Shown here in pieces: positions 4,928 to 20,297 of a stretch of DNA of 39,712 nucleotides. The stretch comes from Minisyncoccota bacterium (GTDB lineage Bacteria; Patescibacteriota; Minisyncoccia; Phycocordibacterales; CSBR16-119). The stretch's first letter is position 1. The number at the start of each line of letters is the position of its first letter. The stretch is from positions 1 through 39,712 of the forward strand of contig JAWKSM010000004.1 in the NCBI GenBank assembly GCA_041389065.1. The letters run 5' to 3'. The notes beneath the pieces were generated by a model. That model did not search any database. It was not told the origin of the DNA and worked only from the letters and a program-made list of their open reading frames with translations. The translations under genes were made by a program, and so were the position numbers.

Positions 4928-5380
4928 ATGAAAAAATTACTTGGTATTTCTTCGTTTTTAGCAATATTTGCTGGTGTTTTGCTGATACTTGCTGGTATTT
5001 GGGGAATTTCTTTTACTTATAACACTATTGCAAGGGAGAATATCACAACACCATCAGATGCATCAATACCTGACACTCCTGTTAGAGGTCCACTAACTTT
5101 ACAATCTCAAGCAGATATAATACGACACCATGTGCTTGAAACAACAGATGGAAAAACGTACTCTGAAATGCCATCAAAAGTAGAAAAAATACAACCCGAT
5201 GGAACTTTCGCAATGGTTCCAAATGATGCTCGCACTATATGGATCACCGCAACCACCCTCATTACTGCGTTACATCTTGGTATTATTACATATGTATTTT
5301 CAGGATTGGTTATATTTATAGGATTTATATCTGTTTGGACTGGTATAACTTTCTATGCTTTAAAAAAGAGTTTTGTTTGA
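4928..5380 (+). CDS. Hypothetical two-TM membrane protein
   Basis: The ORF track gives 4907-5380. An internal ATG at 4928 (MKKLLG...) gives a canonical signal-anchor start. TM helices sit at both ends. Confidence 0.55.
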   Translation: MKKLLGISSFLAIFAGVLLILAGIWGISFTYNTIARENITTPSDASIPDTPVRGPLTLQSQADIIRHHVLETTDGKTYSEMPSKVEKIQPDGTFAMVPNDARTIWITATTLITALHLGIITYVFSGLVIFIGFISVWTGITFYALKKSFV

Positions 5381-5583
5381 CTGCAAATACGGTGCTAAAG
5401 CTCGCTCAAAGAGCACTTCAGATTTTCAAAAGTTCTGAACCTGCTGAAAAAAGAGCTTTCTTGAACTATCTACTTCAGAACCCGACTGTAGACGGAAAAA
5501 AGCTATATTTTACAATAGCTTCTCCGTTTAATTTAGTACTAGAACTGGCTGACAGTCCTAACTGGCTCCCCGTCTCGAGTTAG
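5380..5583 (+). pseudogene. Orphan C-terminal fragment of a large serine recombinase (scar)
   Basis: Frame-1 translation ...EKRAFLNYLLQNPTVDGKKLYFTIASPFNLVLELADSPNWLP resembles the extreme C-terminal tail of recombinase-family proteins (compare ILEKRELLGNL.GKIKLKD in the intact copy at 13920-15224). It has no N-terminal catalytic domain and starts right at the stop codon of the upstream gene. Confidence 0.45.
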
Positions 5584-5726
5584 AACTAAGAAGCTCATTG
5601 CAGGGTAAGGTCATTTTAGCACTAAAATCGGAATTTTTCGACGCGTCTCGAGCACATCAAAAAGTTACAAAAGTGACACGAATCAGCCCTTAAAAATTAC
5701 ATTGCTCTGTAACCTTTTTCTAAGAC

Positions 5727-6104
5727 TTAAATTAGAGCTTCCTGCTCAAGTTCGTGCCACTCACCGGGGTCAATATCTAACATATGTTTATACCCAGTCA
5801 CAAGTTTCTTGGCTAGTTCATTCCTTCTCATCAAGTCATGACTTTCTATGTGTGGCGGAGGAATCTTATTTAAGCTGCGTAGATCTTGAACAAACATCAT
5901 AGTCTTTCTTTTTAAATCTAGATACTCGAAATAAAGTCTTTCACATTCCAGATCAAACATCCATATCTCACCACAGGAATGACAGTAAAATTCTTTCTTT
6001 GTGTGCCCTATTTTCGCAGCAGGTTGACCTTCTGGCTTAACGGTGGCGAAATTCAGATCTGACACTTTTACACTAATTGAATTACATTTTTTACAAGTAA
6101 CCAT
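5727..6104 (-). CDS. Zn-ribbon protein (CxxC...CxxC), last gene of the Shedu-like cassette
   Basis: 125 aa with CKKC near the N-terminus and CHSC about 35 residues later. Starts 9 nt after the upstream gene's stop. Confidence 0.6.
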   Translation of the reverse strand: MVTCKKCNSISVKVSDLNFATVKPEGQPAAKIGHTKKEFYCHSCGEIWMFDLECERLYFEYLDLKRKTMMFVQDLRSLNKIPPPHIESHDLMRRNELAKKLVTGYKHMLDIDPGEWHELEQEALI

Positions 6105-6113
6105 ATAAAAATA

Positions 6114-7268
6114 TTAATTAATGTGATCCTCTAAGATCTTTATGTAATTTAGAAGTCGACCAAGAAGTTCGTCGTAGGTAACAAAGATAATATTTTTTGT
6201 TGAGAGACAAAGTAGACGAAAATCATCACTTTGTTTCTGTTCTACAAATTTTTTAGTATCTCCTGCCAAAATGATTCCGCGGGGACGAAGTACCTTCATA
6301 TTAATCTTGTAATTATCTAAAATGTAGCCACGAACAGCTGCTGCATTATTGGAAATATTTTCAATATAATTTTCTGTCTGGATTACGGCTTTCGCGATTT
6401 CAGAATCCCAAAAATAATTATTACGGCCTGAGTCGTGTTTAAGTATAGGTGTATCAGGACGTTTTATTTCTAAAATATCCAAGTAGTTGTCGTGAGTTAT
6501 AAGACAAAAGTCTGGAAATTTTGTCTTACCGATCACGATATTCATTTTTTCAATCGCCTGAATATAACCCTGCTGGATTATAAGAATATTTTTCTTTATA
6601 TAGGTTTGCCACCAAGATTCCGTGTGTCCTGCATTTATTTGTTTTTCCAAATCTACGGCAAGTTCTTTAAGGCTTTTTATTTGAGTGGTTGCTTTCATTA
6701 AGTTAACCGCACTCAGAGATTCCGAAGAGATAAATTCTGGCAGAAAAGTATTTATAGCCTCTTTGTCGGAAATTGAAAGTCTTGTAACAATATTTGGGTC
6801 AAGAATCTTAGACAGTGTTCCTGGAACATACGCATTTATTTCTCTTTCTTCAAAATGTGTAGGATGCATGCGTGAGAACATGCTCGAAACGATATCGGTC
6901 TTTATATCACGACCCCTATCGAAAAGCTCACTATTCATTTTTGAAAATGTTTTCTGGGAAATTTTTACGCGGTGTATTTTTCTTTCTACGGTTATTGAAT
7001 CAATTTCCGCGGTTATGATTAAGTGAAAATTTTCAAATTTCCTTTTCAGTATTTCAAGTATGTGTTTTCCAAACCCGATCTTTCCGTCATTTCCAAGATT
7101 CTTAGGCTTTTTACCTTCGAAATAAATCCTCGTACCCTTCAAAAGATTTCCGTAACTTTTATTACTTACAACAACATATCCTTTTCTGAGTTTGGTAACC
7201 CTTTTGTTATTAGATTTCTTTTTCTTTGTACCGCTGATAGGTTTTTTGGTCCCAGTTATCTTTTTCAT
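6114..7268 (-). CDS. sduA: Shedu-like DUF4263 PD-(D/E)xK nuclease with a Lys-rich N-terminal extension
   Basis: C-terminal half reads HTESWWQTYIKKN...FPDFCLITHDNYLDILEIKRP...AVIQTENYI...PRGIILAG...IIFVTYDELL. This matches the DUF4263/Shedu layout (E..WQ, D...EIK core, Q..nY, terminal TYDeLL). Confidence 0.7.
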   Translation of the reverse strand: MKKITGTKKPISGTKKKKSNNKRVTKLRKGYVVVSNKSYGNLLKGTRIYFEGKKPKNLGNDGKIGFGKHILEILKRKFENFHLIITAEIDSITVERKIHRVKISQKTFSKMNSELFDRGRDIKTDIVSSMFSRMHPTHFEEREINAYVPGTLSKILDPNIVTRLSISDKEAINTFLPEFISSESLSAVNLMKATTQIKSLKELAVDLEKQINAGHTESWWQTYIKKNILIIQQGYIQAIEKMNIVIGKTKFPDFCLITHDNYLDILEIKRPDTPILKHDSGRNNYFWDSEIAKAVIQTENYIENISNNAAAVRGYILDNYKINMKVLRPRGIILAGDTKKFVEQKQSDDFRLLCLSTKNIIFVTYDELLGRLLNYIKILEDHIN

Positions 7269-7271
7269 GGC

Positions 7272-7517
7272 TTAGTGTTTCTTGTCTCTGGGAGGGTTTG
7301 GATCCTTTCCGGGTGCAACCGTATCACTGTCTCTAATTGGACCACCGTTAGGTTTATGAATCCTCACTTCACCGCCTCCTGATTTGCCTGATAACTCCTT
7401 TGCTAGTTTTTCTGCTTCTGCTTGAGTTCCAACAATAGCTGCGGCTCGATCCGCACCAGCTTTTAATACTTTCCAACCATCCGAATTTTTCGGATTAGTC
7501 ACATGATAGTTTGCCAT
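7272..7517 (-). CDS. DUF2188 domain protein
   Basis: MANYHV...DGWKV...A.RA......TQAEAEKLAKEL......EVRIHKPNG.IRDSDT...DPNPP is the classic DUF2188 pattern. Confidence 0.8.
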   Translation of the reverse strand: MANYHVTNPKNSDGWKVLKAGADRAAAIVGTQAEAEKLAKELSGKSGGGEVRIHKPNGGPIRDSDTVAPGKDPNPPRDKKH

Positions 7518-7534
7518 ATTATTTATGAACTAAT

Positions 7535-8194
7535 TTATAAATTATGCACATACTCGATGTCGTCTTCGGGACGTCCAGTCGGAATTGTGCGTATAAACTT
7601 TCCAAAGATTCTGGAAGTTTCATCGAGAACAATAGGTTGATATCCTTTTGCTTCGGGGTGGAGTATAGCAAGACCTTGTGTTGTTTGTAATCTTTTAAGA
7701 ACAGCCATATCACCAATTATCGCAACAACCCTGTCTCCATTTCCAACAAATTCAGTCTTCTCAACCAGGACATAATCACCGTTATAGATACCGGCATCTA
7801 TCATACTGTTTCCGATAGCCTTAACGGCAACAACCTCTTTGTTTGATCCAACTAAACTCGGAGCCACAGTCAAATACTCTCCAAATTGTTCTTGGGCATA
7901 AACAGACATTGCATCACAGCCAACAGAAGCAATGACTGGTATTTTTAGAAACTGGTTCTTAGAAAAGATGTCGTGATTAACGACTGTAATTCCTCGGTGT
8001 TTAAAGCTATCTCGGCGTATCAAACCTTTTTTCTCTAAGGCGTCCAATCTTTGGGTTACGCTCCGAAGAGATTTTAGCTTGAAGTGTTCCTTGATTTCTG
8101 TAATCAGCGGGGAGAAACCGTTTTTTCTAATAGAGGCTTCTAGGAATTCCAGCGTTTCTTTTTGTTTAGTTGTGAGTATGGTCTGAAGGGCCAC
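7535..8194 (-). CDS. lexA: LexA-type repressor (winged-helix plus S24 autopeptidase), GTG start
   Basis: N-terminal LT.KQ.E.L.F......NGFSP...EI......S..SV...L..LEKKGLIRR. S24 catalytic Ser in GNSM and Lys in LKRL. Putative cleavage region IASVGCDA. Confidence 0.85.
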   Translation of the reverse strand: MALQTILTTKQKETLEFLEASIRKNGFSPLITEIKEHFKLKSLRSVTQRLDALEKKGLIRRDSFKHRGITVVNHDIFSKNQFLKIPVIASVGCDAMSVYAQEQFGEYLTVAPSLVGSNKEVVAVKAIGNSMIDAGIYNGDYVLVEKTEFVGNGDRVVAIIGDMAVLKRLQTTQGLAILHPEAKGYQPIVLDETSRIFGKFIRTIPTGRPEDDIEYVHNL

Positions 8195-8307
8195 AACGTA
8201 ATTATATCACTTACATTTTACTGGTCAAATATTTAAACAGCCACTTATCCACACAATATACACAACTTTGCTTGATTCTTTGCAAACACTTCTGATATAG
8301 TCACTTT

Positions 8308-8454
8308 ATGCCTTACGAACTTCAATTAAAACCTTTTACAGGGACAGACGGTATTAAGTGCAAAATCATTGAGATCACTGATATTGCTTTTCATACAACT
8401 AAAAAGACACCCACTCCTTCCGTTGGTAAAAAGATTCAAAAAGGCTTTCAATAA
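8308..8454 (+). CDS. Possible 48-aa early-gene ORF divergent from the repressor
   Basis: ATG at 8308, stop at 8452-8454; first ATG ORF downstream of the divergent control region. No recognisable HTH. Confidence 0.25.
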   Translation: MPYELQLKPFTGTDGIKCKIIEITDIAFHTTKKTPTPSVGKKIQKGFQ

Positions 8455-8485
8455 ATTAAACCAACCAGACAGAATCTATTCCCCA

Positions 8486-8722
8486 ATGAACAGAGACATG
8501 TTTTCCTCAGATAGAAAGACGTTTGCTCTTGAGCTTCTCAAAAGAGATCCTGATTTTTTGAAAATGATTCAAAAAGAGCAATCTCAGGGTTATAGAGTCT
8601 TAATTCAATTGCCGAAAGATGGAATCCCTATGGTTGCCGGAGACGATACAATCGAATTTCTTAAGAGTAAAAACGGAAAAAGATTATTAAGAGGATTTGA
8701 AAAAGAAAATATAGAGGAATAG
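8486..8722 (+). CDS. Hypothetical protein
   Basis: The track ORF 8369-8722 starts with TTG. The first ATG is at 8486 (MNRDMFSS...). No family recognised. Confidence 0.4.
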   Translation: MNRDMFSSDRKTFALELLKRDPDFLKMIQKEQSQGYRVLIQLPKDGIPMVAGDDTIEFLKSKNGKRLLRGFEKENIEE

Positions 8723-8888
8723 AATATAAAAATTGATATTGCGTAGTAAAAAGTAGAATAGTGTATCGTTTCAAAGCCATGCCTATTCCGCGCAAGAAAT
8801 AGTTTGAAGATTTCGAGCTTCATCTGTTTCGTGTGTGGGATAGGCTTTTTCTATATCCATACATTTTATTAAAGATTAATAAAATCGT

Positions 8889-9266
8889 ATGACGAAACTT
8901 TCATGGACAACAGGAGTTCGAGAAGTCAAAGACTTACTCCCTTGGAAAGAAAACCCAAGAAAAATCTCACGGGTGGCAATGGAAAAATTAAAAGAAAAAA
9001 TCATTCAAAGTGGTTTTCACAGTGTGATTGTCATTGATACAGATAACACCATTATCTCAGGCAATCAAAGAAAAACTGCTTTGATACAACTCGGTATCAA
9101 GCAGGTAAACGTATTGATTCCAGATCGTAAACTTTCAGATGAAGAACGCCGCAAGATTGCTATTGAAAGCAACATTAATGACGGCGAATGGGATTTTGAA
9201 AAATTAAAGTCATTTGATCTAGGTCTCCCTTCAATTTGCAGGATTCAACGAAAAAGAGTTGGTTAA
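8889..9266 (+). CDS. ParB-like nuclease (ParBc) domain protein, probably the N-terminal half of a ParB-MTase fusion
   Basis: Core is IVIDTDNTIISGNQRKTAL, typical of the ParB/Srx fold. The C-terminal 15 aa look out of frame. Confidence 0.75.
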   Translation: MTKLSWTTGVREVKDLLPWKENPRKISRVAMEKLKEKIIQSGFHSVIVIDTDNTIISGNQRKTALIQLGIKQVNVLIPDRKLSDEERRKIAIESNINDGEWDFEKLKSFDLGLPSICRIQRKRVG

Positions 9267-10164
9267 GTTTTGGGACGAAGAAAAAGATACCAAAGATGAC
9301 AAATTCGATGTTGAGAAAGAACTAAAGAAAATAAAAACACCACAGACTAAACCCGGTGACCTCATTATCATGGGTGGTCACAAGTTGTTGTGTGCTAGTT
9401 CAACTGATGTTAATGCTGTTAGAAAACTGTTCGGAAATGATAAAGCTACGGCTATCTACAATGATCCGCCTTTCAATATTGGACTTTCATATGACAAGGG
9501 CGTAGGTAAGAGGTCCAACTACGGAGGCACCTTTGACGATAATCAATCTCCCGAACAATACAAGGAGTTTATTCGTAAAGTTCTAAAATCTTCACTTGCC
9601 ATATCCACCAAAGACGTTCATGTGGCGTTTTGGTGTGACGAAGCGTGGGTGTGGGTTTTTCAAACTTTGTATATGGAACTTGGTGTTAAAAACAGAAGGC
9701 TCAATGTTTGGATTAAAAACAACGCATCGCCTATACCGACCGTAGCGTTTAATAAATGTCTTGAATATTGCGTATATGGCACGAAAGGATCTCCATATCT
9801 TTCAGACATTCTTAAAAATCTCAATGAAGTACAAAACAAAAATTATGGAACTGGTAATCAGCTTCTAGAAGATATCTCAAATATCTGGGCGACCAAACGA
9901 CTACCTGCAAATCAAATGGAACATCCAACAAGCAAGAATCCTGAACTTCACCATAAGTTTATTATGCGTTGCACTAAGCCAGGAGACATCATCTTTGACG
10001 CCTTCTCGGGTTCGGCCAGCACCATGATCTGTGCGGAACAATTAGGTAGAAGAGTCTATTCTCTAGAGACAGAAAATGTGTTTTGTGATTTGGCGATTCG
10101 CAGGTACGAGAAGTTGACTGGCTGTAAGGCACAAATAATCAAGAACTTTTATGAAAAAGAATAA
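9259..10164 (+). CDS. DNA methyltransferase (N6-A/N4-C, beta class), probably the C-terminal half of a ParB-MTase fusion
   Basis: Motif IV is NDPPFN. The SAM motif I near the C-terminus is IIFDAFSGSASTMICAEQLGR. The frame is open back to 9223 and reads VSLQFAGFNEKELVKFWDEE. Confidence 0.85.
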   Translation: MVKFWDEEKDTKDDKFDVEKELKKIKTPQTKPGDLIIMGGHKLLCASSTDVNAVRKLFGNDKATAIYNDPPFNIGLSYDKGVGKRSNYGGTFDDNQSPEQYKEFIRKVLKSSLAISTKDVHVAFWCDEAWVWVFQTLYMELGVKNRRLNVWIKNNASPIPTVAFNKCLEYCVYGTKGSPYLSDILKNLNEVQNKNYGTGNQLLEDISNIWATKRLPANQMEHPTSKNPELHHKFIMRCTKPGDIIFDAFSGSASTMICAEQLGRRVYSLETENVFCDLAIRRYEKLTGCKAQIIKNFYEKE

Positions 10165-10564
10165 ATTTCAAGATCAGTTCTTGGAGGAACTACGAAAAGT
10201 TCCAATTGTCCAGGTTGCTTGCGAAAAGACTGGGTTATCAAGAAACAGTGTATATCGTTGGAAGCGAGAAGACAAAGAGTTTGGAAAGAAAATGGATGAA
10301 GCGTATGCAGAGGGTGTTGCATTGGTAAGTGATATGAGTGAAAGCCAGTTACTTACCCTTATTAAGGAGAAAAACTATTCGGCGATAAGCTTCTGGCTTC
10401 GTCATCGAAACGACAACTACAAAAACAAACTTGAAATTACCACCAAAGAAGATCCCGAAGAGCTAACACCGTCACAAGCAAAAGTTGTGAAGGAAGCCTT
10501 AAAACTTGCAAAGATTACAAAATCAAAATCTATTAGAAATATTAATCGAAAAAAACATGACTAA
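10151..10564 (+). CDS. terS: Terminase small subunit-like HTH protein
   Basis: HTH segment VACEKTGLSRNSVYRWKREDKEF..KMDEA. Overlaps the MTase stop by 14 nt and the TerL start by 8 nt. Confidence 0.6.
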   Translation: MKKNKFQDQFLEELRKVPIVQVACEKTGLSRNSVYRWKREDKEFGKKMDEAYAEGVALVSDMSESQLLTLIKEKNYSAISFWLRHRNDNYKNKLEITTKEDPEELTPSQAKVVKEALKLAKITKSKSIRNINRKKHD

Positions 10565-12050
10565 AATAATTTCAAAAACACTTATAGACACGATGATAAA
10601 AGATCGTTCAGTGCGAACATCAATTACAAAAGACAGTTTTCTGTACTTCTTTCATTTCTACTACGCTCACTACGTAAAGTATGAAACAGCAGACTTTCAA
10701 AAAGAGATCATTCATAATCTCGAAAAAAGTACTACCGAAAATCTGTATGTAGTTGCGTTCCGTGGATCGGGTAAATCAACTATGGTGACAACTGCATACC
10801 CAATCTGGGCAATTCTTGGAAAACAACAAAAGAAATTTTGTATTATCTTCTGTCAAACCAGAGCACAGGCAAAACAGCACATGATGAATATCCGTACTGA
10901 ACTCGAAGGTAATGATGTGCTGAAGAGAGACCTCGGGCCTTTCCAAGAAGAAAGCGATGAGTGGGGCTCATTCTCTCTCGTGTTTAAAAAACACGGTGCC
11001 AGAATTACAGTTGCTTCAAGTGATCAAAGTATTCGAGGAATACGCCACAACGAACACCGTCCAGATCTCGTAATCTGTGATGACGTTGAAGATGTGCAGT
11101 CAACCAAAACTCGAGAGGGTCGAGACAAGACATATCATTGGCTTCGAGGCGAAGTTATTCCTGCAGGAGATAGAAAAACAAGACTGATCATCGTAGGTAA
11201 TCTTCTTCATGAAGACTCACTACTTATGAGGATCAAGGATGAAATAACTAATGGCAAGGCAAAAGGAATTTTCAAAGAGTATCCGTTGATTGATAAAAAT
11301 GACGTTTGCCTTTGGCCTGGAAAATACAAAGACGAGAAAGATTTAGAAGATGAAAAAATGAAAGTTGCTAGTGAGATTGCTTGGCAACGAGAATATTTGC
11401 TTCGCATTATTCCAAGTGACGACCAGGTTATTTATCCAGAATGGATCCAATATTACGACGAGCTTCCAGGAGCAAAACATAAAGCTTATCGAGGTACGTA
11501 TGCTGGAGTCGATCTCGCTATATCAGAAAAAGAATCTGCTGATTTCACTGGTGTTGTTTCCGCACACGTGTACGGTAGAAGGGAAAAAATGAGAATATAT
11601 GTTCTCCCAAATCCAATTAAAAAGAAACTCAATTTTCCTGCACAGGTTGATTTGATGAAAGATTTCAAGAAGACTCAAATGCCAAAATCAACAGACATAT
11701 TATTTGTAGAAAGTGTTGCGTACCAAGAGGCTTTGCCACAAATGCTAGAACTTCATGGGATCCAAGCAACAGCAATTAAACCAAAAGGGGACAAGAGGAC
11801 GAGACTACAGTTAACTTCAACAGTCATAAAATCGGGTGTAATTAAATTTCCAAGACACGGATGCGAAGACCTCATCGAACAACTTGTAGGGTTTGGTGTT
11901 GAAAAGCACGACGATCTTGCGGATGCTTTTTCGCTCTTGATTAATGCCACGTTGGATAAACACTCAAATGAATCAACATGGTTGATGTTCTGGCCTGGTG
12001 GAGGTGATGACAGTACTCTATATTTCTCCGACTATGTTGACGTTGGGTAA
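10557..12050 (+). CDS. terL: Terminase large subunit (ATPase plus nuclease)
   Basis: Walker A is AFRGSGKST and Walker B-like is DLVICDDVED. C-terminal RNase H-like nuclease with GVDLA...D.ADAF. The ATG at 10557 is preferred over the track start at 10506. Confidence 0.85.
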   Translation: MTKIISKTLIDTMIKDRSVRTSITKDSFLYFFHFYYAHYVKYETADFQKEIIHNLEKSTTENLYVVAFRGSGKSTMVTTAYPIWAILGKQQKKFCIIFCQTRAQAKQHMMNIRTELEGNDVLKRDLGPFQEESDEWGSFSLVFKKHGARITVASSDQSIRGIRHNEHRPDLVICDDVEDVQSTKTREGRDKTYHWLRGEVIPAGDRKTRLIIVGNLLHEDSLLMRIKDEITNGKAKGIFKEYPLIDKNDVCLWPGKYKDEKDLEDEKMKVASEIAWQREYLLRIIPSDDQVIYPEWIQYYDELPGAKHKAYRGTYAGVDLAISEKESADFTGVVSAHVYGRREKMRIYVLPNPIKKKLNFPAQVDLMKDFKKTQMPKSTDILFVESVAYQEALPQMLELHGIQATAIKPKGDKRTRLQLTSTVIKSGVIKFPRHGCEDLIEQLVGFGVEKHDDLADAFSLLINATLDKHSNESTWLMFWPGGGDDSTLYFSDYVDVG

Positions 12051-12055
12051 ATAAC

Positions 12056-12835
12056 CTACTCTAGATTTTCTAATTGAGTAGAATCTTGATTAGCATTAGT
12101 TTCTGTATTCTGTTTTGTCGTAACCTTTCTTTTTCTCTGACTAACCATAATCGGAAGTTTTGGTTTTACTGACTCAATCTTGGTTGTAATAATCTTGTAA
12201 ACTGAATCTAGAATATCCTTCTCGCTAAAATACAGTCCTGTTTTGTGTTTTAGGACTTTCTTGAGAAATCTAATAACTTCAACGGCGTAAAGATTGTTAG
12301 ACAATTTAGTTGGTTCAAGAGCTTCAAACCGAGCCCAGAAATCATTGAGTTCGTCTTTCAAAACACTTTTCTTGGTCAAGAAAAACATAAATTCTGACGC
12401 ATGTTTTAACTCTGCGGTATTTGAAAGATCAAACTCGAAAACTTTTCTGGTCGTAATTGGTTTACCAAAAATTACTCGATAGAGTTCGACTTGTTTACCG
12501 TTTGTAAGAATTATCCAATCAATACCTTCGTTGGCCGCGTAGCTAATACTCTGTCGTAGATGTCGCTCAGACAGATCAAGCTGAATGGCTTTTACTTCGA
12601 CTACGAATTGTTTCTTTCTTTTGACTTGGATAATGTAATCAGCATATTCTCCACGAATTCGATATTCTGTTTTTATTTCTTCTAGCTCTGTATATCCCAA
12701 GACATTGGTTAGCAGGCTATTTATCATGAGTCTTGTTGCTGATTCATCGAGATCTTTGTATTGCTTCTTCAAATATTGTTTGGAGTAGTTTTGGAGTTTT
12801 TTATAAAATTCCTGTTTTTGTAATTTTGTTGCCAT
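12056..12835 (-). CDS. Stand-alone HsdR_N-like PD-(D/E)xK nuclease-fold protein
   Basis: YADYII...KKQFVVEVKA......RHLRQ...YA...G..WIILTNG is the pattern of type I restriction HsdR N-terminal domain proteins. Confidence 0.6.
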   Translation of the reverse strand: MATKLQKQEFYKKLQNYSKQYLKKQYKDLDESATRLMINSLLTNVLGYTELEEIKTEYRIRGEYADYIIQVKRKKQFVVEVKAIQLDLSERHLRQSISYAANEGIDWIILTNGKQVELYRVIFGKPITTRKVFEFDLSNTAELKHASEFMFFLTKKSVLKDELNDFWARFEALEPTKLSNNLYAVEVIRFLKKVLKHKTGLYFSEKDILDSVYKIITTKIESVKPKLPIMVSQRKRKVTTKQNTETNANQDSTQLENLE

Positions 12836-12852
12836 ATAAGTTATCTTTTAAA

Positions 12853-13608
12853 TTATTGATTACCGACCTTTTTTATTAATGTCATAAGCTCGTAAGAATC
12901 TTTTATCGCCTGTTGGTCTTTTTTGGTAAGCGTAAAATCAGAATTTTTTTGATCTCCAGAAAATCTCACTCGTACATCCAAATCTCCACTACTTGCAATA
13001 GCTTGGATTATTCCGTTATCTTTGTTACCTGTAAAACTAACGACCTCCCAAACACTTCCACCAGAATTTTGAGTTGCATTATCTGGATCATACGTAGGAA
13101 CTTCTTGCGATTTCAAAACAAGTTCTCCAACTTTGACTTCCACTCTCGTGTGGAATATCCAATTCTCCCCATAATACTGACTTTCCAAATACCCATACCC
13201 TCTGTTGTTTACCGGTACTTTTATAAGTCGTCTATTGTATGAATTTTCTGCTAGTTGATTTTTGTGGGTGTACCAACCAATGTTATTAAATTCATCATAT
13301 TTGTATGTAAAGTTTTTCTTGAGCTCCTCTAGTCTTGCCTTATTTGCTTCTAAAATCGCTGGATCAACCGGTTCAGGTGTTGAAGCAACTACATTCTGAT
13401 TGGTAGATACAGGAGATGGGGTAGAAGTGTTTTTATTATCAGCACTTGAAGCGCTTACGATTAAAATAATCACTAAAAATCCGAGTCCTGTAAGAATCGG
13501 ATGTCGACTAAACCAACTTCTTAGATCTGTCTTGCAGTGAACACACTTCTTTGCTTTTGAAGGTATGTCTGACTGACAAGAAGGACACTTTTTCGTTTCT
13601 TCTTTCAT
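12853..13608 (-). CDS. Zn-ribbon / single-TM membrane protein with an extracytoplasmic domain
   Basis: N-terminal CPSC...CVHC zinc ribbon, one TM helix and a 170-aa C-terminal domain of unknown family. Confidence 0.6.
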   Translation of the reverse strand: MKEETKKCPSCQSDIPSKAKKCVHCKTDLRSWFSRHPILTGLGFLVIILIVSASSADNKNTSTPSPVSTNQNVVASTPEPVDPAILEANKARLEELKKNFTYKYDEFNNIGWYTHKNQLAENSYNRRLIKVPVNNRGYGYLESQYYGENWIFHTRVEVKVGELVLKSQEVPTYDPDNATQNSGGSVWEVVSFTGNKDNGIIQAIASSGDLDVRVRFSGDQKNSDFTLTKKDQQAIKDSYELMTLIKKVGNQ

Positions 13609-13919
13609 ATGTATTTATAAATAAATTAATAAAAAGTTAGTGGCAAACAAAAAGCCCACCACCAGATAGAGCCGAAGCTCATATCTCAAGTTTCCCTGAA
13701 ATAGCACAAACAGTGACCTCTGATGATGGGGTCTTTATACTGTTTGTGTCTAACTATATTCGGGCCATATCGTCGCCCAAAGGCGCCGGGTTAGGTCACT
13801 ATGTTGTATGTATATAATATCGTAAAAAAGCTCTCTTGCTAAGAGCCCAGGCGAGTATGCAATAAAACCGCTAGTCTGCATAGCTATGCAGGGTTTATGG
13901 GTCTGGCATTAATATATCT

Positions 13920-15224
13920 ATGGAAGAAAGAGCGAATCAAGGAGTTGTCACTCCTCCTCAAAAAATTAAATACGTCCTATACGCACGCAAAAGCACGGAC
14001 AGTGATGAGATTCAAGCCTTGTCTATAGATTCTCAGGTCAAAGAAATGCTTCAAATTGCTGAACGGGAAGAACTTGAAATTGTTGATATTAGAAGAGAAG
14101 CTCACTCTGCAAAAGATTCAGGTCAACGACCAGTCTTTAAAGAAATTATCGAAGACATACGAAGAGGTCGTTTTAATGGAATTATTGTTTGGCATCCTGA
14201 TAGATTAAGTAGAAACGCAGGGGACCTGGGAACCCTAGTTGATCTCATGGATCAGAAACTTTTGATTCAGATTAAAACCTACGGACAGAATTTTACTAAT
14301 AGTCCAAGTGAGAAATTTCTTTTGATGATCTTGTGTAGTCAGGCGAAGTTAGAGAATGATAATAAAAGTATAAACGTAAAGAGGGGACTACGAGCCAAGG
14401 TTGAAATGGGGTTGTGGCCATCTGTGGCACCAACAGGGTATCTCAATGAAAAACGAATGGACAGAAAAGGTCATGTACTAGTAGATACTGAAAGGGCACC
14501 GACTATAAAGAAAATCTTTGAAAAGGTGGCGTATGAAAAGTGGTCAGGCAGAAAAGTATACAACTGGCTCAAGTTTGATCTGAACTACAAAACCGCAGCC
14601 GGAGGTAAAAACCTGTCTCTAAGTAATATTTATATCATCCTCCAAAACACTTTTTACTATGGAATGTTTGAGTACCCGCAGAAGTCTGGAAATTGGTATC
14701 AGGGCAAACACGATCCACTCATTACCAAAGAATTGTTTGATCAAGTTCAGGATCAAGTAAAAAGCCAGTTTGTGAGGGTGGAAAATAAAGAATTTGCTTT
14801 CACTAAACTCATGTTCTGCGGACTGTGTGATTCTGGAATAACGGCAGATGAGAAATTCAAGAGACAGAAAAATGGCAACGTTCACCGGTATGTTTACTAT
14901 AAATGCTCAAATTCAAAAGACAGGACTTGCAAAAACGGCTATCTGGAAGAAAAAGAACTAATTCGACAATTTGGAGATCTGATGGATCGAATAGATCTAA
15001 ATGAAATTGGGATAAGAGAAAAACTAAGATCTGAAGTAGAGAAATTCAAGAAATTCCAAAAACTTCTTTCTGGAAAATCAAAGAAAGTTGAGATAGAGGA
15101 TATAGATATACGGAATTATGCGAAGTTTGTTCTTACTGAGGCGAGTATTTTGGAGAAACGAGAGTTGCTAGGAAATCTTAAAGGAAAAATCAAGTTGAAA
15201 GACAAGAGAATTAGCCTTTCTTGA
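13920..15224 (+). CDS. Large serine recombinase (resolvase catalytic domain plus recombinase domain plus Zn ribbon)
   Basis: YARKSTDSDEIQALSIDSQ catalytic Ser context, RLSRN, and a CGLC...YYKC zinc-ribbon segment. Confidence 0.9.
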   Translation: MEERANQGVVTPPQKIKYVLYARKSTDSDEIQALSIDSQVKEMLQIAEREELEIVDIRREAHSAKDSGQRPVFKEIIEDIRRGRFNGIIVWHPDRLSRNAGDLGTLVDLMDQKLLIQIKTYGQNFTNSPSEKFLLMILCSQAKLENDNKSINVKRGLRAKVEMGLWPSVAPTGYLNEKRMDRKGHVLVDTERAPTIKKIFEKVAYEKWSGRKVYNWLKFDLNYKTAAGGKNLSLSNIYIILQNTFYYGMFEYPQKSGNWYQGKHDPLITKELFDQVQDQVKSQFVRVENKEFAFTKLMFCGLCDSGITADEKFKRQKNGNVHRYVYYKCSNSKDRTCKNGYLEEKELIRQFGDLMDRIDLNEIGIREKLRSEVEKFKKFQKLLSGKSKKVEIEDIDIRNYAKFVLTEASILEKRELLGNLKGKIKLKDKRISLS

Positions 15225-15252
15225 AATATAAATATTTAATAGGTCTTATTTT

Positions 15253-18200
15253 TTAATCAGTAATCGGCCTTATTAATACTGTACGCATAGTATCATTTCC
15301 TTTTTTATAGGAATTAACTTCTTCTAGTTCAAATCTGACACCAATATCTTTACCAATACTTTCAAGTTGTTTTAAGATTATTTGATAACTCGTCTTATCT
15401 CTCGCATTTGCAAGTATTGGTATAAATCTATTTTTATCTATATATTCACTCTTGTACCTCTCAATAAAAGCCTTGATTAGCTTACCGCCAGCTAACTTTG
15501 ATTCTGTGTTGGCGGCAAGATCTGCTACATAAATTACTTTCTCATTTTCCTCTACAGAACCTTCGTATGCAAGAAGATATCCCTGGGTCTTTTTCTTCTC
15601 ATCCTCATATTTAAGTGCCATATTGGGAAGATTGAAATGAGAGTTTAATATATCTTTTGCAATTAGACCATTTTCTATATTGTGTAAATATTCTTTTAGG
15701 GAAGAATTGTCGTCGTATGCTTTTCCTTCGATATATGCGGCACTAAGAGTATCTGCGTATGTCAGGTCAGAAATACCCTGTATACTTGATTCTATTTTTT
15801 TAATACTTGGCTTATTTTTAGCACTTAGTTTTTTCTGTAAAATTAATTTTTGTTTCGTTAAATCAATTACTTTTGCAGTTTTTCCTATGTTATCGCTGTA
15901 TCCAACAGGAGCAGTTGGTACAAAAGTATTATCAATATTTTGGCCAATACTTGCATCAGTGTAACCGGTTCCAATTACGACACGATTAGTATCAAGATTT
16001 TCCTTTTCTCCATAGTGTTTTGCATACTCACTAAAGAAATCGTCATATAAAACTTCAAGATCAGTAATGTCTCTAAAGTTAGGACTTACCTCGATATTGT
16101 CGCACGTCATTATATCTTTCTCATTTACTAACACATCATCAGAAAATATCCCGTTTAAAGAAGTTTTTTCATTTCCGTTCAATTTTTTTAGCAAATCTGC
16201 GACGTTTACCTTTATATCCCGATCTTTTGTAACTACAGATTGGGCTACCGTTTTCCACTCTCCATCTTTTGATTTTCTCTGAACCACCAGCTGACCACAA
16301 ACAGGATTATACATATACACGTTATTTTTCCCTGAACCGAATGGCATACAACAAGCTGTGTCGTTTCCAGCTACTACCACTTCTGGGTCGCTCTTTAGTC
16401 CAATCTTCATTCTGTATTCCTTTATAGGTAGAGCCAGTCCGTATTCTCCGTTATATAAGATACTCTGAAAGTCTTGTTGTAAATTTTCCGGGATAGCAAT
16501 TTGACCTTTTATTATTTCCATCAAGTTCAATCTTTCTTTTTTAGATAAATCATTTAATTTTTTAAACAAAACTCCTGGATTTTTTGCAATACCAGTGATT
16601 TTCTCACCTCTTGAGCCAAGCGCCTTTTTCATTTGATCTACAAAAGACAGATGAGTAATCTCTCCTTGAGGTATCTTATACTCAATTTCAAGAGGCTGCC
16701 ATGCTTGTATTTGGTCGAGTGATCCCTCTATCAAAGCATCTCTTAAATCTTCTGAACGAAGGTCCATGTAGGGAATTTCTGTATAGTTTGAGGGCTTCTT
16801 TAATTCATGGGTGCGGCTCGCATGCTCATCACCGACACCTAGAAATCCAGATGGGTTTTGCCAGAACTCAATTACTGACTGAGTATTAATATTCGGATGA
16901 AAAGCTAAATATTCTACATAGTCTTTTAATTTTTCTTTTCCTTCGCCCGAAAGATCTTTGAGTTGCTCTAAGATTTCTGATTTATTTAAAAGTTCTATTA
17001 AATCAGCAAAGTTTTTCAAAGATTTCCAATTAATAAAAATGTCTCCCGGTTTTTTGATTTGATCTACCAAGTCTTTTATTTTTTTGATTTCGTATTCCGT
17101 TGCTTTCTTTAGTTTTTCTAAAACATCTATATTTTCAAAAACATCAGCAATATTATTTAGTTTTTGATATGAATTAATTTCTAAAGTTTCGTAAGCTTCG
17201 CCTCCATCATCCTCTTCTTCCATATACTCCTCTGCTACGCCGTAATTTCCGGCGTCTCGTTGAACCTGGAGTAGGATGTTGGCATAGAACTGCTCGGGTT
17301 TTAACCCCGACTTCTGTGCCATATTGATTACCTTTTTAAAAGCAAAAAGTTTGTCATGGTGGTTTTTACCACCCACGAACTTAAACATTTTTTTGTATCC
17401 AAAATATAGGGCACCAGTTTCAAACGCCTCCTTAATTTCATGATCTTCTTGAGTCCAAACCGAATCTTCCATATTTTTGATATTTTCAAAAATATATTCG
17501 TAGTCATTTTCTGTTTGTGGGTCGTACTCAACTTCATGTTCATCTATTTTGTTTAAATCAAGCCCTCTTTCTTCAACAAGTCTTTTTTTTATTAAGATAT
17601 TTTCTCCTAAAGAAAGTGTTTCTATGTATTTCCAAGATAGACCAAGGATATTTTCTGTAAAAAATTTTTTTGTTTCTTCTGTTTCAACCATACTTCCCAG
17701 AGAAAGTTCATTTAATTTTATAAGTTTTATTGTACCCAGTTTTACTTCAGCATCTGAAATCTCTAGTCTTTCTTTGAGATTTATAGCAATGTATATTTTA
17801 CCAACAGACATCCAGTTGCTAATGGATTTAAGCACTATTTCATTAGCGGTTTCATTGTCTATTAGGAATTGTTTTTGTATTTCTTTAAAATTTTCTGTTA
17901 TATCGTCTGCCACACCTCCGTTCATGTTCAAAATCCAGAGCATTTCTTTTTTTGCCAGTTTTTGAACATTTGGACTTCTTATAAACTCTTCGGAAACATT
18001 AAAATTATTTTTTAATGAAATAACCTCAGCAATGTGACTTTGATCTAGACGCTTTAGAATCCACTTTTCAACTATTTCTTGTACATCACTTTCTGCCAAG
18101 TTGAACTCTCTCGCAATATTGCCTGCTGCAAGTGAATCCTCTCCCTTTATTTTATTATCCATCGCCCTTTTCGCCACTGTTTGAATATCGACATCGGTAA

Positions 18201-20130
18201 TCAATTCTGAATTACTTCCAGTTTCTTTTATTAATTTAACTGCCTCATCAGCAAAAGAATCATTAAGTAACTCTATAATCCATTTTTTTATCAGTAATCT
18301 TATTTTTTCATCCTCCATAAAAGAATCCGGTAAAGAGAATATTTTTTTAATATTAAGATAAAATTTATAGTTATCAGACTTTATTAATATTTCTTTAATT
18401 ATATTACTAGTTTCATTTTCCGAAATTGAGAAAAATTCTTTTAAGTTAAAAATATTTCTAAATTTTGTTTTTAATTGAAAATTTTTTTGATCAAGTGCGT
18501 ATTCAATTATCATGGGCTTTATACTTAGCGCTACATCATCTTTATTTAGACCGCAACTTGAAACGATCTCTTGAATTATGTGAATGTCTCCCTTTAAAAC
18601 CAAGCTTTTAATTTTATTTTTCGCTTCTTCGATAATTTCTGGCTCTGCTAGAACAGCCCTTAAGGAGCTCAAATTTTCGTTGTTATTAATAACTTTAAAT
18701 ACATTAATCGTTTTCTGTAAACCTTCATCAGTCTTGAATGAATTTATGAAATTGTCTTTAAAAGTTTCCCTTACCTCATTGTCATTCAACATATTGTGAG
18801 AAATTTTAAAATTTTCAGAAACCCCTATGAGATAGCTAGTATAAGAATTCTCGTCAATTTTTTCTAAAAGAATATCCTTAATGATCTCCTCAATAGATTT
18901 ATCACTTATATTAAATTTTTCTTTTATCTTTAATGCCGTGGAAAAATCTAATCTATTAATATTTTTTGCCAAGCCTATATTTGCGGCTTCTTGCATATCT
19001 AGTTGATCTAAAACGCTATCGGGAATATTAAATTTTTCCTTAATTCTCATTGCAGCATAATAAACACCTTGGCCCATAATTTCTCTAACTGATTCAACCG
19101 CAGAATCCTGTGTTTCTGAATTTTGTATAAAATTTTCGTCAATTCCAATCTTTTCACAAATATTTAATACTCTTTGCCAACTAGCTTTTTTTAGAAGCAT
19201 TAATAAATTACTCTCTACAACATCCTTCAATTTTTCTTTTGGAAGATCTGAGTTCTTTATAATTTCAACCGCCAATTCTTGGTTATGTCTTGTACCTAAT
19301 TCACTATCCAGCCATTCGATGATAGCGTCTTGAACATCATCTTCACTCATACCCCAATCATTTTTTATTTGATTTATATTATTCAAAACACTTTTAACCG
19401 CCTCCGGATATTTTTGAGTGGGTACTTTGACTTTTTCCTTTTGTTCTTTTTTAATACCAGCCCTTACGGCCCCTTTAACTGCCGGACTATGAATAAAATC
19501 ATCGGACATAGAGAGTGCGTCGCTCATTTTTTTGGTCCAATAAAAATGCGACTCGTTTAATCCTTCAATAATTATTTTTTTTATTTTTTCTTGTATTTCT
19601 GGATCTTTAATAAAATCTTGAGATATTGGAAAGTTTTCCGCTATGGTCGCAATAGATCCATATGCGAACTCATCATTAAATTTGCGTGTAATAATATTTT
19701 GTATTACCATTTGACTTTCAGGATCAGTAAACAGCTCGTTTGACACAGCAAAGGTCTTTTTTAAAAAAACCGCAGTATGATAATTCGAAGAAATTACTTC
19801 CATTATTGATTTCTTTGCGAGCTCTTGCGTCTCTGGACTCTTAATAAATTCTGTAGAAAAACCAAAAGAATTCTCAATATTAATAATCTCAAACTTAGAA
19901 GGATATTTTGAAAAATCAGAAAGTATTTTTATTATTCTGTTTTGTGTTTCTAATAAAACCTCTTTATCATTTGTTATAGTTTCCCCTGAGCTTTCAAAAT
20001 CATTTTTTAATTTTATTGCGTCTTTTATTTTTCCTGAATTGATAAGAGAAATAATCTCATTTTTTAGAGATTCTCTCTTGTTGCTGTTCACTCCTTCACG
20101 TCTATTGTCTGGTGGTCCTTCTCTTGGCAT
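15253..20130 (-). CDS. 1625-aa repeat (alpha-solenoid-like) protein with a GNAT-like C-terminal domain
   Basis: Single uninterrupted ORF. The first ~830 aa are many degenerate ~35-40-aa units (...F.IS.EFI.SPE.Q..AKK.I...L). The last ~160 aa read IYVADLAAN.ESKLAGGKLIKAFIERY...ANARDKTSYQIILK, resembling the GNAT beta4-alpha3 and beta5-alpha4 region. Confidence 0.8.
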   Translation of the reverse strand: MPREGPPDNRREGVNSNKRESLKNEIISLINSGKIKDAIKLKNDFESSGETITNDKEVLLETQNRIIKILSDFSKYPSKFEIINIENSFGFSTEFIKSPETQELAKKSIMEVISSNYHTAVFLKKTFAVSNELFTDPESQMVIQNIITRKFNDEFAYGSIATIAENFPISQDFIKDPEIQEKIKKIIIEGLNESHFYWTKKMSDALSMSDDFIHSPAVKGAVRAGIKKEQKEKVKVPTQKYPEAVKSVLNNINQIKNDWGMSEDDVQDAIIEWLDSELGTRHNQELAVEIIKNSDLPKEKLKDVVESNLLMLLKKASWQRVLNICEKIGIDENFIQNSETQDSAVESVREIMGQGVYYAAMRIKEKFNIPDSVLDQLDMQEAANIGLAKNINRLDFSTALKIKEKFNISDKSIEEIIKDILLEKIDENSYTSYLIGVSENFKISHNMLNDNEVRETFKDNFINSFKTDEGLQKTINVFKVINNNENLSSLRAVLAEPEIIEEAKNKIKSLVLKGDIHIIQEIVSSCGLNKDDVALSIKPMIIEYALDQKNFQLKTKFRNIFNLKEFFSISENETSNIIKEILIKSDNYKFYLNIKKIFSLPDSFMEDEKIRLLIKKWIIELLNDSFADEAVKLIKETGSNSELITDVDIQTVAKRAMDNKIKGEDSLAAGNIAREFNLAESDVQEIVEKWILKRLDQSHIAEVISLKNNFNVSEEFIRSPNVQKLAKKEMLWILNMNGGVADDITENFKEIQKQFLIDNETANEIVLKSISNWMSVGKIYIAINLKERLEISDAEVKLGTIKLIKLNELSLGSMVETEETKKFFTENILGLSWKYIETLSLGENILIKKRLVEERGLDLNKIDEHEVEYDPQTENDYEYIFENIKNMEDSVWTQEDHEIKEAFETGALYFGYKKMFKFVGGKNHHDKLFAFKKVINMAQKSGLKPEQFYANILLQVQRDAGNYGVAEEYMEEEDDGGEAYETLEINSYQKLNNIADVFENIDVLEKLKKATEYEIKKIKDLVDQIKKPGDIFINWKSLKNFADLIELLNKSEILEQLKDLSGEGKEKLKDYVEYLAFHPNINTQSVIEFWQNPSGFLGVGDEHASRTHELKKPSNYTEIPYMDLRSEDLRDALIEGSLDQIQAWQPLEIEYKIPQGEITHLSFVDQMKKALGSRGEKITGIAKNPGVLFKKLNDLSKKERLNLMEIIKGQIAIPENLQQDFQSILYNGEYGLALPIKEYRMKIGLKSDPEVVVAGNDTACCMPFGSGKNNVYMYNPVCGQLVVQRKSKDGEWKTVAQSVVTKDRDIKVNVADLLKKLNGNEKTSLNGIFSDDVLVNEKDIMTCDNIEVSPNFRDITDLEVLYDDFFSEYAKHYGEKENLDTNRVVIGTGYTDASIGQNIDNTFVPTAPVGYSDNIGKTAKVIDLTKQKLILQKKLSAKNKPSIKKIESSIQGISDLTYADTLSAAYIEGKAYDDNSSLKEYLHNIENGLIAKDILNSHFNLPNMALKYEDEKKKTQGYLLAYEGSVEENEKVIYVADLAANTESKLAGGKLIKAFIERYKSEYIDKNRFIPILANARDKTSYQIILKQLESIGKDIGVRFELEEVNSYKKGNDTMRTVLIRPITD

Positions 20131-20198
20131 ATATTTAAAATTATATCATTTCCATACAAAAAAAGCTCCTTTAAAAAAGAGCTGTTTCTGACGCATCT

Positions 20199-20219
20199 CG
20201 TGCGGGATAACCCTGCACG
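20199..20219 (-). terminator. Hairpin immediately 3' of tRNA-Asn
   Basis: cgtgcggg-ataa-ccc(t)gcacg, 3 nt from the tRNA CCA end. A weaker hairpin with a T-tract lies further downstream at about 20163-20185. Confidence 0.35.
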
Positions 20220-20222
20220 ACT

Positions 20223-20297
20223 TGGCTCCCCGAGTAGGATTCGAACCTACGGCCAATCGATTAACAGTCGATTGCTCTACCGCTGAGCTATCGGGGA
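20223..20297 (-). tRNA. tRNA-Asn (anticodon GTT), CCA encoded
   Basis: Reverse complement is TCCCCGATAGCTCAGCGGTAGAGCAATCGACTGTTAATCGATTGGCCGTAGGTTCGAATCCTACTCGGGGAGCCA. It has a 7-bp acceptor stem, D and T arms (GGTTCGAATCC) and anticodon loop CTGTTAA. Confidence 0.95.

Follow-up and report, generated by a model that had tools for sequence, protein, structure and literature searches.

The contig JAWKSM010000004.1 of the patescibacterial assembly GCA_041389065.1 (Minisyncoccota bacterium) carries a gene for a protein of 1625 amino acids (aa), and this giant gene, the protein family to which it belongs and the tRNA-Asn locus at which it lies are the subject of this study. The window, meaning the whole stretch of DNA that was analysed, is the complete 39.7-kb contig (39,712 nt) of a 526-kb genome that is 76% complete and in which a SelO-family gene was not found. 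The giant gene occupies positions 15253..20130 of the minus strand as an intact open reading frame (ORF) with an ATG start, 1625 codons and a stop; upstream of the ATG the frame stays open for just 5 more codons. It is by far the largest ORF in a window of small genes, the runner-up being 630 aa long. On its stop side it converges, across a gap of 28 nt, on a large serine recombinase (13920..15224, plus strand) that has the Pfam domains Resolvase, Recombinase and Zn_ribbon_recom and matches a PHROG integrase at 9e-65, and on its start side it is separated by 92 nt from a tRNA-Asn(GTT) gene (20223..20297, minus strand). The ORF size and both gaps had been reported in a preliminary description of the window; when the coordinates were re-derived here, all of them agreed.

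The upstream spacer (20131..20222, minus strand) contains the terminator of tRNA-Asn (20183-20164) and then, shortly before the ATG, an extended -10-like element, TGATATAAT. Read in this way, the spacer sequence suggests that the giant gene is transcribed from a promoter of its own and that its leader is very short. The encoded protein is acidic (isoelectric point, pI, of 5.1) and soluble, contains 6 cysteines in total, and has no signal peptide or membrane segment, its maximum 19-residue hydropathy being 1.16. As one part of the overall explanation that is favoured below, with confidence a little above even, it would be a cytoplasmic, soluble member of its family.

A constant C-terminal tail behind a variable N-terminal arm

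Searches with the giant protein and its parts against Pfam, NCBIfam, PHROG, PADLOC and the sequences of the Protein Data Bank (PDB) returned nothing above threshold, four homologues of 2100-2500 aa had no match in Pfam either, and no description of the family was found in the literature. Near-length homologues numbered 36, and the share of the query conserved among them was only ~46%: residues 870-1625 alone (15256..17523, minus strand), a C-terminal module that is common to the whole family and is 44% identical to a 1505-aa protein from Patescibacteria. The closest homologues are P0002, which is 71% identical, and P0003. An exhaustive HMMER search recovered 472 representatives (50% identity clusters) at E<=1e-3 and 302 at E<=1e-30, and nearly all of the 472 originate from Patescibacteria. 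On contigs chosen as one genome per species, 69 related loci were collected, spanning many classes of the Candidate Phyla Radiation (CPR). A few family bins are labelled Bdellovibrionota or Obscuribacterales, the taxon labels of such non-CPR bins being unreliable, and no relative of the family was found among the viral contigs of IMG/VR. The family tree is broadly coherent with the lineage labels, and within it the giant protein groups with Moraniibacteriota bins (support 99).

Almost always the module lies at the extreme C-terminus, preceded by N-terminal extensions that differ in length, the longest homologue having about 2800 aa of extension. The results show a large, unnamed and almost Patescibacteria-specific family with a constant tail of 755 residues and an N-terminal arm whose length and sequence differ among relatives. 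The repeat array, which the preliminary description had read as an alpha-solenoid-like scaffold, is thus the variable part and the tail the constant one. Some genomes were seen to hold two family members (loci L035/L043, L052/L063 and L068/L069), and in one case the two copies are adjacent (L072:7997-16352). Additionally, one predicted protein of 5715 aa (P0037) contains two complete arm-plus-tail units in series, at residues 623-1385 and 1759-2543.

In the giant protein, the variable arm is an array of diverged repeats at residues 19-794 (17749..20076, minus strand). With an iterated hidden Markov model (HMM), 19 units were detected, 15 of them at 10 bits or more, with a repeat period of ~38-40 aa and the consensus YSEAINIKENFSISDEFITDPEVQEAIKKIIIKKIN; the 15-19 diverged units of ~38 aa obtained in this way bear out the earlier estimate, made by eye, of about 15-20 units of 35-40 aa in the first half of the protein. 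A control HMM trained on residues 1-470 only gave scores of 21.7 and 8.8 bits within residues 471-870, the best of 100 shuffles reaching 6.4 bits and the C-terminal module -3.7. The same repeat type was found in the N-termini of 36 of 168 homologues, four of which have 10-13 copies. No Pfam match to TPR, HEAT or ARM was obtained for the array, and its sequence periodicity suggests repeats that may be helical and alpha-solenoid-like.

Predicted folds of the tail

An AlphaFold2 model of the tail, built from 36 sequences, reached a predicted local distance difference test (pLDDT) score of 85.9 and a predicted template modelling (pTM) score of 0.80. As modelled, the tail is shown to consist of three parts: an all-helical domain at residues 870-1139 (16714..17523, minus strand), delimited by the secondary structure of the model and by conserved columns; a first, divergent domain resembling the GCN5-related N-acetyltransferases (GNATs) at residues ~1144-1444, with its core at ~1236-1426 (15799..16701, minus strand), assigned from the model and its structural matches; and a canonical GNAT fold at residues 1449-1625 (15256..15786, minus strand), assigned from structure matches and invariant columns. 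The helical domain leads into an invariant KKPS linker motif (P1113). The earlier statement that residues ~830-1450 match nothing recognizable holds at the sequence level but not by fold, given the helical domain and the GNAT-like domain at 1144-1444. By its predicted structure, the protein is a member of the GNAT superfamily in an undescribed architecture.

In the model of the tail, a GNAT fold was obtained for residues 1449-1625. Against Naa10 (4kvm_E), the modelled domain gave a Z score of 10.2 with a root-mean-square deviation (rmsd) of 2.9 Å over 145 of 153 residues, so that the proposal of a GNAT-like stretch in the last ~160 aa is confirmed by structure, although not by any Pfam model. 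Further matches included RimI, Ard1 and EctA among about 50 GNATs that cover the whole domain at Z >= 8.3, and Foldseek returned an E value of 3e-5 (9f1b). The predicted topology, beta1-alpha1-alpha2-beta2-4-alpha3-beta5-alpha4-beta6, is the mixed alpha/beta arrangement of the GNAT fold. The GNAT toxins 7byy (Z 10.1) and 6gtp (Z 8.7) were also among the matches and scored no better than ordinary GNATs. At the sequence level, a profile of the last domain made from 62 sequences recovered Naa10 at an E value of 0.0056 as its only sequence-profile match. In GNATs, motif A (Q/R-x-x-G-x-G/A) forms the beta4-alpha3 loop that binds the pyrophosphate; in the Naa10 profile alignment, beta4 YISDLA was paired with HITSLA and the K-x-A-G-G of the motif A region with RRLGLA. 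Four columns of the last domain are invariant, namely Y1518, D1537, R1577 and T1580.

The first GNAT-like domain, modelled alone from 62 sequences, reached a pLDDT of 88.9 and a pTM of 0.87. In both structural searches all of the 50 best chains were GNATs, with Z scores that began at 8.8 (rmsd 4.0, 159 residues aligned) and fell to 7.0-7.2 at rank 50, and with Rv0802c, Naa80, HAT1, GCN5, RimJ-like proteins, Eis2 and MAB_4324 among the matches. The glycine loop of motif A was not found in this domain, its beta4-alpha3 segment reading TCDNIEVSPNFRD with no G-x-G. A comparison of the domain profile with PDB sequences gave nothing meaningful, a search of the ESM Atlas returned unnamed clusters only, with low recognition, and Foldseek against viral models produced one weak match at an rmsd of 20 Å and otherwise scattered GNATs.

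Conservation within the first GNAT-like domain is concentrated in 21 columns that are invariant among the 62 sequences, including K1246, G1255, D1257, C1261, K1268, Y1272, N1275, D1344, Y1411 and D1413. Several of these fall in the signature GNDTACCMPFGSGKNN (residues 1255-1270; 16321..16368, minus strand), located in the loop between alpha1 and alpha2, in which G1255, D1257, C1261 and K1268 do not vary. The preliminary description had singled out this stretch as a Cys-rich patch, which overstates its composition (3 cysteines in the patch, 6 in the whole protein) and nevertheless draws attention to the right place, the patch being the most conserved motif of the family. Of the three cysteines, only C1261 is strictly invariant, and a single invariant cysteine is more in keeping with a nucleophile than with a metal site.

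The integrated element at tRNA-Asn and the neighbourhoods of the family

Comparison with the nearest congener (G107), whose right flank is 95% identical at the nucleotide level, delimited an insertion of 14.65 kb at window positions 5574..20222. The site is empty in the congener, where the equivalent of window 5366-5501 is followed by 63 nt and then by tRNA-Asn. Homology to this empty site resumes in the window at 5564..5573 (plus strand), where TGGCTCCCCG, followed by a degenerate T-arm-like stretch, forms the left copy of a flanking repeat; it is an exact copy of the 3' terminal 10 nt of the tRNA-Asn gene (20223-20232), which form the right copy. This 10-nt repeat came from the congener's empty site, and a search for a longer repeat of the tRNA-Asn 3' end (16-25 nt, up to 3 mismatches) found none. 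Together, the empty site and the flanking repeat indicate that 5574-20222 is an insertion at the 3' end of the tRNA gene and that the giant gene is included in it.

The insertion carries a cassette of Zn-ribbon, Shedu, DUF2188 and LexA-like genes, ParB, a methyltransferase, the terminase subunits TerS and TerL, an HsdR_N-like gene, a Zn-ribbon protein, the serine integrase and the giant gene; no virion structural genes (capsid, portal or tail) were found in it. The giant gene was not found in 7 genomes of the same genus, three of which are at least 92% complete, and across the order it had just distant partial matches, which were confined to 2 of the 100 other genera. A search of 5 congeners for TerL was negative. 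In another congener (G102), an integrase 70% identical to that of the element lies only ~730 nt from a tRNA, without other island genes; the place that the 4.9-kb giant gene takes up between integrase and attachment site is therefore a slot for cargo. With an empty site in a close relative, a 10-nt repeat, an integrase inside the insertion and a gene absent from 7 congeners, these observations support the proposal of the preliminary description that the giant gene is mobile cargo at tRNA-Asn: in this genome, it is the cargo of an integrated element.

Metagenome assemblies were consistent with the arrangement in the window. In the probable source sample, zero-difference contigs bridge both the joint between the integrase and the giant gene and that between the giant gene and the tRNA; elsewhere, zero-difference pieces of the element turned up in two other studies, in runs from wastewater and activated sludge, and the piece in one wastewater run spans the integrase-giant junction. 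Contig joints inside the giant gene were disregarded, as their sides measured just 21-22 nt. An excised form was not seen, no contig joining 5573 to 20223 in four runs, with contigs being prone to drop rare forms.

Variants of the element were also observed. In the probable source sample, one variant contig is ~95% identical to the element over 5563-5678 and 7546-13804, whereas the Zn-ribbon/Shedu/DUF2188 genes (window 5679-7545) are replaced by 1266 unrelated bases, which fits a swappable cargo slot. At 9227 (also at 8438 and 12843), contigs of the variant element from two runs are one base shorter. Position 9227 lies within the zone in which the preliminary description had proposed a frameshift splitting ParB from the methyltransferase, and this split may reflect either genuine variation between strains or a misassembly of the window. 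One source-sample contig follows the integrase as far as 15200, beyond which its sequence is unrelated; this hints at a sister element with a different gene, or none, in the slot of the giant gene.

The tRNA-Asn locus has a wider history in the genus. At 5381-5583 the window retains a remnant of ~67 codons from the C-terminus of a different serine recombinase, which ends inside the displaced 3' fragment of tRNA-Asn. The same remnant abuts tRNA-Asn in G107, and intact serine recombinases of 557-575 aa occupy that spot to the left of tRNA-Asn in two further congeners (G104, C3:80361-81446; G101, C3:3789-4601). This tRNA gene is therefore a recurrent target of serine-integrase elements in the genus. 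In three congeners the anticodon loop of tRNA-Asn(GTT) contains a group I intron (Rfam RF00028, 66-73 bits, insert of ~235-560 nt), at L079:1280-1598 (G107), L077:16023-16260 (G104) and L078:15781-16022 (G106); the tRNA-Asn of the window (20223-20297) is intron-free, and no paper on group I introns in tRNA-Asn of CPR bacteria was found in the literature. In G102, ARAGORN predicted a tRNA-Ser with the unusual anticodon ACT at L081:9129-9218, 730 nt downstream of the 70%-identical integrase, and this gene may be derived from an attachment site or aberrant.

Across the family as a whole, no gene neighbour is conserved in the 69 loci, and no neighbour family occurs in more than 6 of them. Among 238 neighbours, the top-25 Pfam tallies were housekeeping families, for instance EF-Tu-type GTPases, Mur ligases, SecDF, enolase and aminoacyl-tRNA synthetases. 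About 5 of 44 loci have a tRNA within 500 nt, in no case tRNA-Asn; the idea that homologues always adjoin a tRNA or a recombinase was accordingly not upheld, as no regular adjacency was seen in the 69 loci. One locus (L023:6010-14980) was observed to run from a tRNA through a recombinase, a family gene and two unknown genes into housekeeping genes. There, the family protein is 1022 aa long, with a tail 40% identical to that of the giant protein, and its gene lies directly beside a 534-aa serine recombinase that overlaps tRNA-Ala at its 3' end; it may represent another small island with a family member on it. In another (L071), a recombinase lies 7.8 kb away from the family gene. Overall, the family gene appears as an accessory one, spread across the lineage but retained sparsely, which integrative elements acquire now and then; it is not an obligate mobile-element gene.

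Candidate functions and their meaning

The explanation that best accommodates the results as a whole, and which we hold to be somewhat better supported than an even chance, is that the giant protein belongs to a CPR family in which a repeat arm is joined to an acyltransferase tail with two GNAT domains, carried in this genome as accessory cargo. In this model the tail would be an acyl-transferase dependent on acyl-coenzyme A (acyl-CoA). The last GNAT would bind the acyl-CoA donor through its partial motif A and the invariant R1577 and T1580 at the beta5-alpha4 position, and the first GNAT-like domain would supply either the acceptor pocket or a thioester or acyl intermediate at Cys1261. The repeat arm may recruit a macromolecular substrate, probably a protein, much as Naa15 positions Naa10, and the gene would move with the element as accessory cargo. 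A bolder version appears unlikely: that the family forms a new class of repeat-guided acyl-transferases with two active sites, in which the invariant cysteine of a remodelled GNAT domain would allow a thioester relay between the two GNAT folds, and that it is spread among CPR bacteria in part by serine-integrase elements as a conflict system, for defence or host manipulation, whose fast-evolving arm sets the target.

Comparison with known systems places this model in context. The best structural matches of the last domain were the N-terminal acetyltransferase NatA (catalytic Naa10 with the helical-repeat protein Naa15) and its archaeal and bacterial relatives Ard1 and RimI, and in NatA, as predicted here, a long helical-repeat part is joined to a small GNAT. 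However, the giant protein is one polypeptide, its array is not TPR by any Pfam model, and it has no known link to the ribosome; in addition, its motif A is only partly kept, and a second GNAT-like domain with the invariant Cys motif and a helical domain stand between the arm and the GNAT. Tandem GNAT folds in one chain are also found in the mycothiol synthase MshD, Eis, MAB_4324 (7q3a) and N-myristoyltransferase. In these enzymes donor binding often falls to one domain, and the form of the acceptor site to the other. The giant protein has no sequence similarity to them, its two domains are not detectably related to each other by sequence, its first domain has large insertions and the unique GNDTACCMPFGSGKNN loop, and there is an N-terminal extension of ~1100 residues. 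As for the element, its integrase, the short repeat that regenerates the tRNA 3' end, the empty site in a relative and the cargo at both ends (Shedu on the left, the giant gene on the right) resemble tRNA-linked islands and satellite-like elements with large serine integrases. It differs in that TerS and TerL are present without genes for a capsid, portal or tail, and in an integrase that lies 4.9 kb from the attachment site with the giant gene in between; serine integrases less usually target tRNA genes, but such targeting is repeated at tRNA-Asn in this genus.

Several observations weigh against the repeat-arm acyltransferase carried as cargo. On the side of the fold, the Z scores of the middle domain (7-9) are in the middling range of the tool, its best Foldseek E value of 3.4e-3 is above 1e-3, and hhalign found no significant sequence relationship between the two GNAT-like domains. 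In the last domain motif A is partly kept ([KR]-x-A-G-G-x), with the basic residue common, G1548 present in at least 90% and the final G/A not conserved, and no Pfam GNAT model matched any part of the protein, even at an E value of 10 (residues 1451-1625 included). On the side of mobility, most of the 69 loci are flanked by housekeeping genes and have no recombinase. The insertion was delimited by a single empty-site comparison, that with G107, and may alternatively reflect two insertions one after the other, or loss of sequence from the congener. In the source sample the element also exists in two or more variants, and the contigs are too short to link its left part in phase to the giant gene.

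An anti-phage defence or abortive-infection protein, in which the arm senses a phage component and the GNAT tail acetylates an essential target, is an unlikely alternative that draws on the gene's setting. The giant gene lies at one end of a mobile element with a Shedu nuclease cassette at the other; the distribution is very patchy, with the gene in 1 of the 8 genomes of the genus and in about 1 of the 101 genera sampled from the order, the N-terminus is variable, and some genomes have tandem or multiple paralogues. The GNAT toxins AtaT and TacT acetylate aminoacyl-tRNA. They share with the giant protein the GNAT fold and carriage on mobile DNA, as does KacT, and 7byy and 6gtp were recovered in the structural searches. 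However, these toxins are single domains of ~170 aa with an adjacent antitoxin, whereas no conserved antitoxin-like or partner gene accompanies the family. The toxin matches do not surpass those of ordinary GNATs, no PADLOC model matches the protein or its tail, and the top-25 tallies of the 238 neighbours show housekeeping families with no enrichment of defence genes.

There is likewise a small chance that the protein is an ordinary chromosomal, regulatory protein acetyltransferase, the adjacency to the recombinase being coincidental and the gene having been lost from the congeners. The housekeeping surroundings of most homologues, the broad coherence of the tree with lineage labels (including the Moraniibacteriota grouping at support 99) and a cytoplasmic protein whose best matches are protein acetyltransferases are consistent with such a role. 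The locus itself argues otherwise: the gene lies within the flanking repeats of an insertion that the nearest congener does not have, it was not found in the 7 congeners, three of them at least 92% complete, and the family has no conserved synteny.

An effector aimed at the host of an episymbiont, with an arm that binds a host protein and a tail that modifies it, appears quite improbable. The confinement of the family to episymbiotic CPR lineages, together with the few bins labelled Bdellovibrionota or Obscuribacterales, would suit such a role, as would the very large size of the protein, its fast-diverging arm and the expansion of paralogues. Those non-CPR labels are unreliable, though, and the protein lacks both a signal peptide and membrane segments, genes for secretion systems do not recur in the neighbourhoods, and neither an adjacent immunity gene nor a conserved neighbour was found, as a polymorphic toxin would have. 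Finally, a non-catalytic scaffold of dead GNAT binding modules, to which the degenerate motif A and the lack of a Pfam GNAT match might point, is highly improbable in view of the 21 invariant polar or small residues of the first domain (Cys, Asp, Lys and Tyr among them) and of D1537, R1577 and T1580, which the second domain keeps at the usual positions for catalysis and CoA binding.

Returning to the acyltransferase carried as accessory cargo, the findings bear on both the organism and the family. A single protein takes up nearly 1% of a genome of ~0.6 Mb, which implies an important role, and it belongs to a family with hundreds of diverged members that has no name, Pfam model or literature. 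In this family the GNAT fold, as predicted, is combined with an undescribed, strictly conserved Cys-bearing domain and a fast-changing arm. As the element has no counterpart in the nearest congener and runs of other studies contain pieces of it with zero differences, the giant gene is accessory and probably transferable, and its role is narrowed towards strain-level adaptation rather than core physiology. The island thereby provides a natural pair of strains, with and without the gene, for comparison.

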